A DNA stretch of 25,288 nt from an uncultured Bacteroidota bacterium (GTDB lineage Bacteria; Bacteroidota; Bacteroidia; Bacteroidales; P3), in NCBI GenBank assembly GCA_902766265.1, contig CACXCY010000229.1, positions 1-25,288 on the forward strand, in the 5' to 3' direction. The position numbers and the translations under genes were made by a program. The stretch's first letter is position 1. Each line of letters begins with the position of its first letter. The notes beneath the pieces were generated by a model. The model did no database searches. It worked only from the letters and a program-made list of their open reading frames with translations, and was not told where the DNA came from. Shown one piece after another: positions 10,864 through 12,551 of the stretch.

Positions 10864-10893
10864 GAAAAGCCCATCCGTCAGGAAGGGCTTTTC
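10864..10893 (+). terminator. Intrinsic terminator hairpin after the DUF2723 gene
   Basis: GAAAAGCCC-A-TCC-GTCA-GGA-A-GGGCTTTTC; A-run before and T-run in the 3' arm. Confidence 0.75.
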
Positions 10894-10961
10894 TGCGTAT
10901 ATGTTTAAAACCTTGTTACAATCTTTCAGCGGCATACGAGGTTCAATTATGGAATTGTTGC

Positions 10962-10969
10962 TAATTTTG
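10962..10969 (+). promoter_or_regulatory. Bacteroidetes -7 element (TAATTTTG) for the small RHH gene
   Basis: TAnnTTTG followed by CA, 23 nt before ATG 10993. Confidence 0.65.
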
Positions 10970-10992
10970 CAAATACTTTAATCACTATCACT

Positions 10993-11244
10993 ATGCCAAA
11001 TAAAACGCAACCGCGGGGTAAGAAAGTATCTCTGACGTTCTCGAGACGAGATTATGAGGCACTAACGGCTTTTGCGGAAGACAAAGGTGTTCCCCGCGCG
11101 GTGGCGATACGCCATATTGTGCACGAAGCTTTGAAGACGTACAATCGCAATGCTTCACAAACGGTGTCGAAAAACCAACTGGGGCTTTTCGATTCTGTGC
11201 AGATTGACATCTTTAACAATGCATCCAAGACAGAGGACGTTTGA
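10993..11244 (+). CDS. Ribbon-helix-helix (CopG/Arc-like) DNA-binding protein with C-terminal QLGLF/QIDIF motifs
   Basis: KVSLTF strand, helix SRRDYEALTAFAEDKG, helix PRAVAIRHIVHEAL; has its own promoter and fills the gap between a terminator and the atpB promoter. Confidence 0.75.
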   Translation: MPNKTQPRGKKVSLTFSRRDYEALTAFAEDKGVPRAVAIRHIVHEALKTYNRNASQTVSKNQLGLFDSVQIDIFNNASKTEDV

Positions 11245-11297
11245 GGGAATACAAAAAAAAACTTTGCAGAATAGCGTTGTCAATCCCGACTTTTTTG

Positions 11298-11305
11298 TAT
11301 CTTTG
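11298..11305 (+). promoter_or_regulatory. Bacteroidetes -7 element (TATCTTTG) for atpB
   Basis: Exact consensus followed by CA, about 55 nt upstream of ATG 11361. Confidence 0.75.
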
Positions 11306-11360
11306 CAAGTCCATATAGGATGAATACAAAATTGCTATTATAAGAAATAAACTATTAATC

Positions 11361-12551
11361 ATGCGATTAAAACACATCACTTTATTTGCGGCTCTTTTCT
11401 CTTTGTCGGTGGTGGCTCTTGCACAGACAGAGAGCATTCCTTCCGAGAAAGACCTCAACAGCCCTATCAAGGCAGTTGATGAATTGCCGGATACAACGAT
11501 GAACCAGGCGGCTGTGGTGGTAGAAGATGAAGGAGAGATGAATCCAGGTTCCATCATTATTGGTCACGTTACTGATGCTCATTCCTGGCATCTGTTTGAC
11601 TACAAGACCAAAGACGGTAAAGAACATGCGGTGGCTATCTCACTGCCAGTCATCTTGATTAATGATGGCCACTTGGATGTCTTTATGTCCAAACGTTTCC
11701 ATCATGGTCACGCTGATTATAAGGGTTATCGCCTTGTGGGTGGCGGTTTGGAAAAGGAAGAGATTATCTGCATTGATGAGATAGGAAACCCCATTGTGAT
11801 GGCCAATGGAAAGATAAAGAAACCAATCGATATCTCAATCACCAAGACTCCTGCAGCTATAATTATAGCGGTGATACTCCTGCTTGTTATCGTTCTTTCG
11901 GCAGGGAAACAATATAAGAAACGTCCCAATAAAGCTCCGCATGGCTTGCAAGCTCTGGTGGAAATGTTGGTGTGTCATGTGCGCGACGAGATGGCTGCAC
12001 CGATGATAGGGCCTAAATATGAGAAGTATCTTCCCTATCTGTTGACGCTGTTCTTCTTTATCTTCTTCTGCAATTGCTTGGGTATGATACCGTTCTTTCC
12101 TGCAGGTGCCAACATTACGGGAAATATTGCAGTAACAGCCACATTGGCTTTGATTACTTTCTTTATAACAAACCTTAGTGGCAACAAGCATTATTGGAAA
12201 GACATATTCAATACTCCTGGTGTTCCTGCATGGTTAAAGGTATTCCCTTTGATGCCGGTAGTGGAACTTGTGGGTGTGTTTACCAAACCCATCGTGCTGA
12301 TGATACGACTCTTTGCCAATATGACAGCAGGTCATATCGTCATTCTCGGCTTTGTGGTGATTATTTTCATCCTGTCAAATCTGTTTGGAGCAGCTGTGGG
12401 TGGCGCGGTGTCGGTAGTATCGGTGCTGTTTGCCGTGTTCATCAGTTTACTTGAGTGTCTGGTGGCTTACATCCAGGCCTATGTGTTCACGATGCTTTCG
12501 GCTCTCTACATAGGTATGGCCGTAGAAGAACCCGAGGAAGCTCACGCATAA
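11361..12551 (+). CDS. atpB: F0F1 ATP synthase subunit a (Bacteroidetes long form)
   Basis: HVTDAHSWH, DISITKT, YLPYLLTLFFFIFFCN, ANITGNI, IRLFANMTAGH (essential Arg), LECLVAYIQAYVFTMLSALYIG; N-terminal signal-like sequence and acidic extension. Confidence 0.95.
   Translation: MRLKHITLFAALFSLSVVALAQTESIPSEKDLNSPIKAVDELPDTTMNQAAVVVEDEGEMNPGSIIIGHVTDAHSWHLFDYKTKDGKEHAVAISLPVILINDGHLDVFMSKRFHHGHADYKGYRLVGGGLEKEEIICIDEIGNPIVMANGKIKKPIDISITKTPAAIIIAVILLLVIVLSAGKQYKKRPNKAPHGLQALVEMLVCHVRDEMAAPMIGPKYEKYLPYLLTLFFFIFFCNCLGMIPFFPAGANITGNIAVTATLALITFFITNLSGNKHYWKDIFNTPGVPAWLKVFPLMPVVELVGVFTKPIVLMIRLFANMTAGHIVILGFVVIIFILSNLFGAAVGGAVSVVSVLFAVFISLLECLVAYIQAYVFTMLSALYIGMAVEEPEEAHA

Follow-up and report, generated by a model that had tools for sequence, protein, structure and literature searches.

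A ribbon-helix-helix protein family of Bacteroidales with a conserved tail motif as a candidate partner of the DNA sliding clamp

The gene and its surroundings

The window, by which we mean the whole stretch of 25,288 nucleotides analyzed here, carries on its forward strand, at positions 10993 to 11244, an open reading frame (ORF) of 83 codons followed by a stop codon, as the sequence-only reading of this DNA had described. The encoded protein consists of a basic N-terminal arm, a ribbon-helix-helix (RHH) core, a polar linker and a tail that displays two short and similar peptides, QLGLF and QIDIF (Table 1). The codons for Q62 to F66 span nucleotides 11176 to 11190 and those for Q70 to F74 span nucleotides 11200 to 11214; the placement of the pair between 11176 and 11214, already proposed in the sequence-only reading, matches the translation of the ORF. 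The gene is present as a single copy in its own genome, which has 1.9 Mb. When all six-frame ORFs of at least 60 amino acids of this genome were scanned, the pattern Q[LIM]x[LIM]F was found 62 times, and pairs lying within 30 residues of each other, for which 0.06 occurrences are expected, were observed once, namely in the 83-residue RHH protein.

Table 1. Features of the RHH gene and of its upstream region (window coordinates)
Feature	Position	Strand	Basis or remark
Candidate Bacteroidota -7 promoter element, TAATTTTG	10962..10969	+	Read from the sequence; 24 nt before the ATG
Basic N-terminal arm, residues 1-10	10993..11022	+	Lys/Arg runs in relatives (alignments); mean pLDDT 76
RHH core, residues 11-54: strand segment plus helices 18-31 and 35-54	11023..11154	+	AlphaFold2, Foldseek, PDB profile
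Variable polar linker, residues 55-60	11155..11172	+	Unconserved in alignment A1; low pLDDT
Motif 1 with flanks, N61, Q62-L-G-L-F66, D67	11173..11193	+	Family-defining peptide of clamp-binding type
Motif 2, Q70-I-D-I-F74, second copy of the same peptide type	11200..11214	+	Invariant in the close clade
Short polar/acidic C-terminal end, residues 75-83	11215..11241	+	Alignments

As seen in the window, the gene lies downstream of a gene for a TMEM260-like protein of 1038 amino acids and upstream of the genes for ATP synthase subunit a (atpB), Pgk and a YgiQ-type radical-SAM protein, and the order ADI, TMEM260-like, RHH, atpB, pgk, ygiQ is conserved in the clade to which the window belongs. The atpB gene (11361 to 12551) does not lie with the other F-type ATP synthase genes: those for subunit c and the alpha subunit are on contig C6 of G000, and a second ATP-synt_ab gene, probably that of the beta subunit, is located on C141. 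In all close relatives, too, the RHH gene is followed by atpB, whose product has an N-terminal DUF8433 domain, and then by pgk, and the split of the ATP synthase genes is therefore an ancestral trait of the clade rather than an error of assembly.

Elsewhere in the family, glmM usually precedes the gene and recR converges on it, and in other members kdsA is the adjacent gene. The recR gene is convergent in 7 of the 25 loci with full context, and otherwise no conserved neighbor ties the family to replication; at L038, L039, L040, L048, L051 and L052, the gene follows glmM and is convergent with or adjoins recR. No neighbor is constant over the 25 loci, and none is a toxin, ParA or replication gene. 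This extends to the family what the sequence-only reading had stated for the window, where TMEM260-like and atpB are the neighbors and no toxin, replication or partition gene is adjacent. The absence of a constant neighbor and of toxin, ParA or replication genes speaks against roles as an antitoxin, in partition or in dedicated local autorepression. It also follows that any invariant partner of the protein must have its gene at some other place in every one of these genomes. A partition protein of the ParG/omega type was rejected, as the gene has no adjacent ParA-type ATPase and our operator search revealed no direct repeats upstream of it. The only strong inverted repeat upstream is the terminator-like hairpin of the preceding gene (10864 to 10893).

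The sequence-only reading had also credited the gene with a promoter of its own of the type TAnnTTTG. The element is indeed present in the window (Table 1), but it is no feature of the family, being peculiar to this genome and one relative (L001), the two loci at which longer spacers with promoter-like elements were found. In most relatives, the gene starts approximately 5 to 25 nt from the upstream stop codon. On its other side, the atpB start lies a few to approximately 60 nt downstream of the RHH gene in most relatives, and farther away in a few. Within this downstream spacer of the window, ATACAAAA occurs three times between 11247 and 11331, twice in direct and once in inverted orientation, flanking TATCTTTG (approximately 11297 to 11304), a promoter-like element of atpB, and a block, TTTTTTGTATCTTTGCA, is common to the window and L001. 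The ATACAAAA triplet may be an operator, or no more than AT-rich DNA of the promoter; most relatives do not have the spacer that holds it.

In RNA-seq libraries of two studies, assembled contigs span the ORF without a mismatch and include the upstream terminator region as well. Their existence is compatible with transcription of the ORF and demonstrates presence in RNA libraries only. At position 11253, in an intergenic run of A residues just after the stop codon and thus outside the ORF, the RNA-library contigs of two runs are one A shorter, which may reflect strain variation or a homopolymer assembly error.

A ribbon-helix-helix core in a single-copy family

The structure of the 83-residue protein was predicted as a monomer with AlphaFold2 from an alignment of 79 sequences. 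Residues 11 to 54 were modeled with a pLDDT of 96 to 98 as an extended segment (residues 11 to 17) followed by the two helices given in Table 1, and a distant family member was predicted with the same layout of strand and helices. Among the matches listed by Foldseek for the PDB, almost all were RHH proteins (MazE9, Rv0298, CopG, Arc, ORF56, ParG, NikR, NikA and CopA), with an rmsd mostly of 1 to 3 Å over 40 to 53 columns and of approximately 5 Å for the chains of the MazE9 complex; E-values reached only 0.16 to 1 because the RHH domain is so small. The search of the PDB with a sequence profile likewise returned mainly RHH proteins (CopG, 56B, AvtR, NikR and ParG), with 56B and CopG at an E-value of approximately 0.005. 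Neither Pfam, including RHH_1, nor NCBIfam gave a match of any kind to the window protein. One relative falls just above the Pfam RHH_1 threshold (21.1 bits against a cut-off of 20.5), and others show RHH-type matches below threshold in Pfam or NCBIfam as well as weak matches to RelB and DUF6290. On these predictions, we accept the RHH assignment of residues 11 to 54 as the confident core of the protein; the RHH pattern that the sequence-only reading had recognized in residues 11 to 50 agrees with the model. From what is established for the RHH fold, the protein is predicted to dimerize and to bind DNA. Basic N-terminal arms are also found in ParG and Arc. The predicted fold of residues 11 to 54 matches that of RHH transcription factors and antitoxins such as CopG, Arc, ParG, NikR and MazE9, but unlike these, the protein has no toxin, ParA or metal-binding partner domain, and we know of no clamp-type tail motif in those families.

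Our searches restrict the family to a single order. With a profile, 95 matches were obtained among 1.8 billion representative proteins. In a six-frame search of genomes sampled from the order, with a threshold of E 1e-5 or better, the family was present in 101 of 301 genomes and 66 of 209 genera, always in exactly one copy. Outside the order, a sample of 401 genomes of the phylum gave only weak matches, which cover the RHH part and not the tail. Member genomes belong to Bacteroidales, Lentimicrobiaceae included, and are nearly all metagenome-assembled genomes of uncultured organisms. No Pfam or NCBIfam model covers the family, and a search of the protein atlas gave unnamed clusters and generic RHH families only. 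Wherever a member has been given a name, it is that of a hypothetical protein, save for two stray automatic labels: one JGI record names P0228 (93 amino acids) "DNA polymerase III psi subunit," and P0132 is labeled "peptide methionine sulfoxide reductase MsrA." We found nothing to back either name, and both are probably automatic mislabels, that of P0228 being a curious one given the clamp-type motif. Searches of 50,697 phage and 72,556 plasmid records with tblastn gave no match, and a mobile origin was rejected. Fused or longer forms were likewise not found among proteins of 206 to 2000 amino acids, which is weak evidence. Overall, single-copy occurrence and the lack of phage or plasmid matches give the family a housekeeping-like distribution. 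We regard the gene as genuine, and likewise the family to which it belongs, for which we know of no earlier description.

The nearest folds include RHH antitoxins (MazE9, Rv0298 and CopA), and together with the weak matches to RelB and DUF6290 they bring to mind an orphan RHH antitoxin or a classical autorepressor, the tail of which would be a toxin-binding or degron segment. This is very improbable given the genomic data. The 25 loci with full context hold TMEM260-like, atpB, glmM, recR or kdsA genes instead of a toxin-like neighbor, and a gene kept at one copy in each of 101 genomes, without phage or plasmid matches and syntenic with housekeeping genes, does not behave as an antitoxin gene. 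In addition, the family motif lies a median of 16 residues from the C terminus, and in most relatives an autorepressor would find no promoter region in front of the gene to regulate.

Conservation and rules of the tail motif

As described above, the tail of the window protein carries two motifs, and the sequence-only reading had proposed to test whether both are conserved in homologues while the linker drifts. Our alignment passes this test. A search of 5.8 billion proteins yielded 27 close homologues, and in their alignment the RHH part is 35 to 50% identical to the query while the 15-residue segment N61 to N75 is invariant. The codons of this segment vary synonymously among the 24 distinct loci, with all six Leu codons, all three Ile codons and both codons each of Gln, Asp and Phe in use. 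Synonymous sites of the tail vary freely, and the constraint therefore acts on the peptide; the motif is under purifying selection at that level. For the same reason, a DNA or RNA element overlapping the tail was rejected. The three residues between the motifs are likewise fixed or nearly so in the close clade, which is more constraint than two independent motifs would need.

To define the motif over the whole family, we pooled 297 distinct members. The pattern Q-[LIM]-x-[LIM]-F follows the second helix in 295 of them, and in these the Q and the F never change. Leucine occupies position 2 in 96% and shares position 4 with I and M, and position 3 is free, with K, G, D, N, S, E and T all occurring. 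The flanks are also conserved, with N at position -1 in 93% and an acidic residue at position +1 in 74% (D alone in 63%), and a [VI]-[STA]-[EK] block is conserved upstream of the N. What comes after the motif is a variable acidic tail, with a median of 16 residues to the C terminus.

A second copy of the motif is present in 128 of the 295 members, 8 to 28 residues from the first. Its position falls into several groups, at 8, 9 to 10, 12 to 15 or more than 20 residues after the first copy, with the window's clade at 8, and its sequence varies as well (QIDIF, QLSIF, QMNIF, QLTIF, QMDIF and QLNLF are examples). When the one-copy and two-copy states were mapped on a FastTree phylogeny of the core, built without the second motif, at least 18 changes of state were counted, a number that is rough given the approximately 67 columns of the alignment. 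The variety of second copies and these repeated changes fit independent linear-motif units, and the second motif is thus a repeatedly gained or lost extra copy of one linear motif rather than part of a fixed structural element. The two tandem motifs that the sequence-only reading had taken as the hallmark of the protein are both present here, but what defines the family is a single motif, N-Q-L-x-L-F-[DE], to which certain lineages have added the second.

The tail is also where the prediction loses confidence. Residues 56 to 83 have a pLDDT of 55 to 64, and the tail of the distant member has a pLDDT of 44 to 59; the low values in both members indicate a flexible, exposed and disordered tail. 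Within it, AlphaFold2 draws two short strands, at residues 69 to 71 and 77 to 79. These strands, together with the invariance of the whole N61 to N75 segment in the close clade, could be taken as signs of a tail with a role in structure or self-association, for example as a beta-hairpin or zipper by which RHH dimers on DNA would assemble into tetramers or larger oligomers, in the manner of the C-terminal extensions of Mnt or NikR. However, the strands fall in the low-confidence range just given, most members have one motif only, followed by the variable acidic tail, and neither the spacing of the second copy, which ranges from 8 to 28 residues, nor the hypervariable position 3 is what such an element would lead one to expect. 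We therefore consider a structural role of the tail improbable.

The sliding clamp as a candidate partner

The consensus of bacterial clamp-binding peptides is QL[SD]LF (as quoted in PMC12867686). The rules derived above for the family motif are those of this consensus plus an extra N. Escherichia coli Pol II ends in QLGLF, and motif 1 of the window protein is this same pentapeptide.

For a comparison within the order, we turned to its own clamp clients. The host has one normal dnaN gene, a 383-residue ORF on the minus strand of contig C151 of G000 that covers 10920 to 11981; its DnaE gene is incomplete and runs off its contig, and its Y-family polymerase, present as a fragment, carries QLDLF followed by an acidic stretch. 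A second QLDLF-bearing ORF of the host (contig C135) was set aside, as it has the appearance of a spurious antisense frame. Y-family polymerases were collected from 40 other genomes of the order, giving 30 loci (L114 to L143). Strict Q-L-x-[LIM]-F is present in 11 of the 30, and D or E comes next in 10 of these 11. The clamp-binding ends fall into three classes. Short DinB-type polymerases end in hexapeptides of the form Q-L-x-hydrophobic-x-hydrophobic, polymerases of 385 to 513 amino acids carry Q-Q-L-x-[LIM]-F-[DE]-[DE], and UmuC-like proteins of approximately 420 to 440 amino acids have Q-L-x-L-F-[DE] at an internal position and are also conserved at the C terminus. By this comparison, the RHH tail carries the same peptide as the accepted clamp clients of the order, the acidic residue after the F included. 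The setting differs: here the peptide sits on an 83-residue DNA-binding protein without a catalytic domain, it is preceded by a conserved N at position -1, and it has a second copy in the window's clade.

These differences bear on a further alternative, in which the tail docks on some other conserved partner (RNA polymerase, a protease or its adaptor, or a division or segregation protein) and its match to the clamp motif is partial mimicry or coincidence. The conserved block, [VI]-[STA]-[EK]-N-Q-L-x-L-F-[DE], is longer than the canonical clamp motif, neither the N at -1 nor the [VI]-[STA]-[EK] block occurs with the motifs of the order's polymerases, and the family is confined to one order while the clamp is universal. 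The N and the upstream block are not known clamp determinants and may point to an additional or a different partner. On the other hand, all four determinants of the clamp motif are fixed in the family, the sole free position is the one that is free in the consensus, and the acidic residue at +1 is shared with the polymerase motifs of the order. Moreover, we know of no other bacterial partner that recognizes Q-L-x-L-F, which we count against this alternative. Docking on a partner other than the clamp is unlikely in our judgment.

Docking of the DNA-bound RHH dimer to loaded beta clamps (DnaN) through its tails is the best-supported reading of the data and, we think, probably the right one. The clamp interpretation has passed every computational test available and may overall be called partly supported, and the conserved peptide makes the family a strong candidate for a new clamp partner. 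The proposed protein would be a small dimer, with the basic arm and the RHH sheet holding DNA. Each subunit would display, on its disordered C-terminal tail, one copy of the beta-clamp-binding motif, or two as in the window, and the tail would insert into the hydrophobic cleft of DnaN rings loaded on DNA. With its two tails, the RHH dimer could then engage both clefts of a single ring. Going by known clamp geometry, a spacing of 8 residues is too short for the two motifs to occupy the pair of clefts in the same ring. The second motif would add avidity or rebinding. The outcome would be recruitment to newly replicated DNA or competition with other clamp clients. We thus commit to a clamp-tethered DNA-binding factor that would couple its DNA-bound state to replication, acting on local transcription, as phage Mu MuC does, or on clamp occupancy. 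The N at -1, the fixed residues between the motifs and the 8-residue spacing leave room for the different-partner and structural alternatives.

Sliding-clamp clients are mostly replication and repair enzymes. The sequence-only reading knew of no characterized chromosomal protein that combines an RHH domain with a double clamp motif, and our literature searches agree, as no RHH clamp partner was found in them. The closest precedent comes from phage Mu, whose transcription factors MuC and Mor bind DNA and carry two clamp-binding motifs, neither of which can be dispensed with in clamp-activated late transcription (PMC12867686). MuC and Mor depend on clamp binding for their function, which links transcription to replication, and their overexpression is toxic via titration of the clamp and interference with the Hda-clamp control of DnaA (PMC12867686). 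What the phage proteins and the RHH family have in common is a DNA-binding protein with clamp-type motifs; they differ in that MuC and Mor are phage proteins with motifs at the N and C termini, whereas the RHH family is chromosomal and carries its motifs in tandem in one tail. The Mor/C family has a helix-turn-helix and not an RHH fold. Membership in the Mor/MuC family was rejected on the RHH fold, the lack of a Pfam match and the lack of any detected sequence relationship. Among cellular proteins, Hda (Proteobacteria), YabA (Bacillota) and CrfC are lineage-restricted clamp clients other than polymerases, in which a short motif couples a regulatory activity to loaded clamps. The RHH family differs from them in having no AAA+, zinc or dynamin-like domain and no sign of a contact with DnaA, and the likeness is at most functional and speculative.

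Going one step further, the family might be to the cell what MuC is to phage Mu, or an equivalent of Hda and YabA, that is, an order-wide RHH factor that reads loaded clamps and couples transcription, clamp occupancy or the control of re-initiation to the passage of the fork; we put this forward as a tentative and rather unlikely extension. What would be new is that a chromosomal RHH DNA-binding protein, lacking any catalytic domain, is a candidate clamp client. To our knowledge, MuC of phage Mu (published in 2026) is the only bacterial DNA-binding regulator shown to act through the host clamp, and we know of no replication-coupled regulator described in Bacteroidales. If the clamp interpretation is true, an order-wide, single-copy RHH protein with an invariant clamp motif would extend the MuC principle to cellular genomes and would provide Bacteroidales with a candidate replication-coupled DNA-binding factor.
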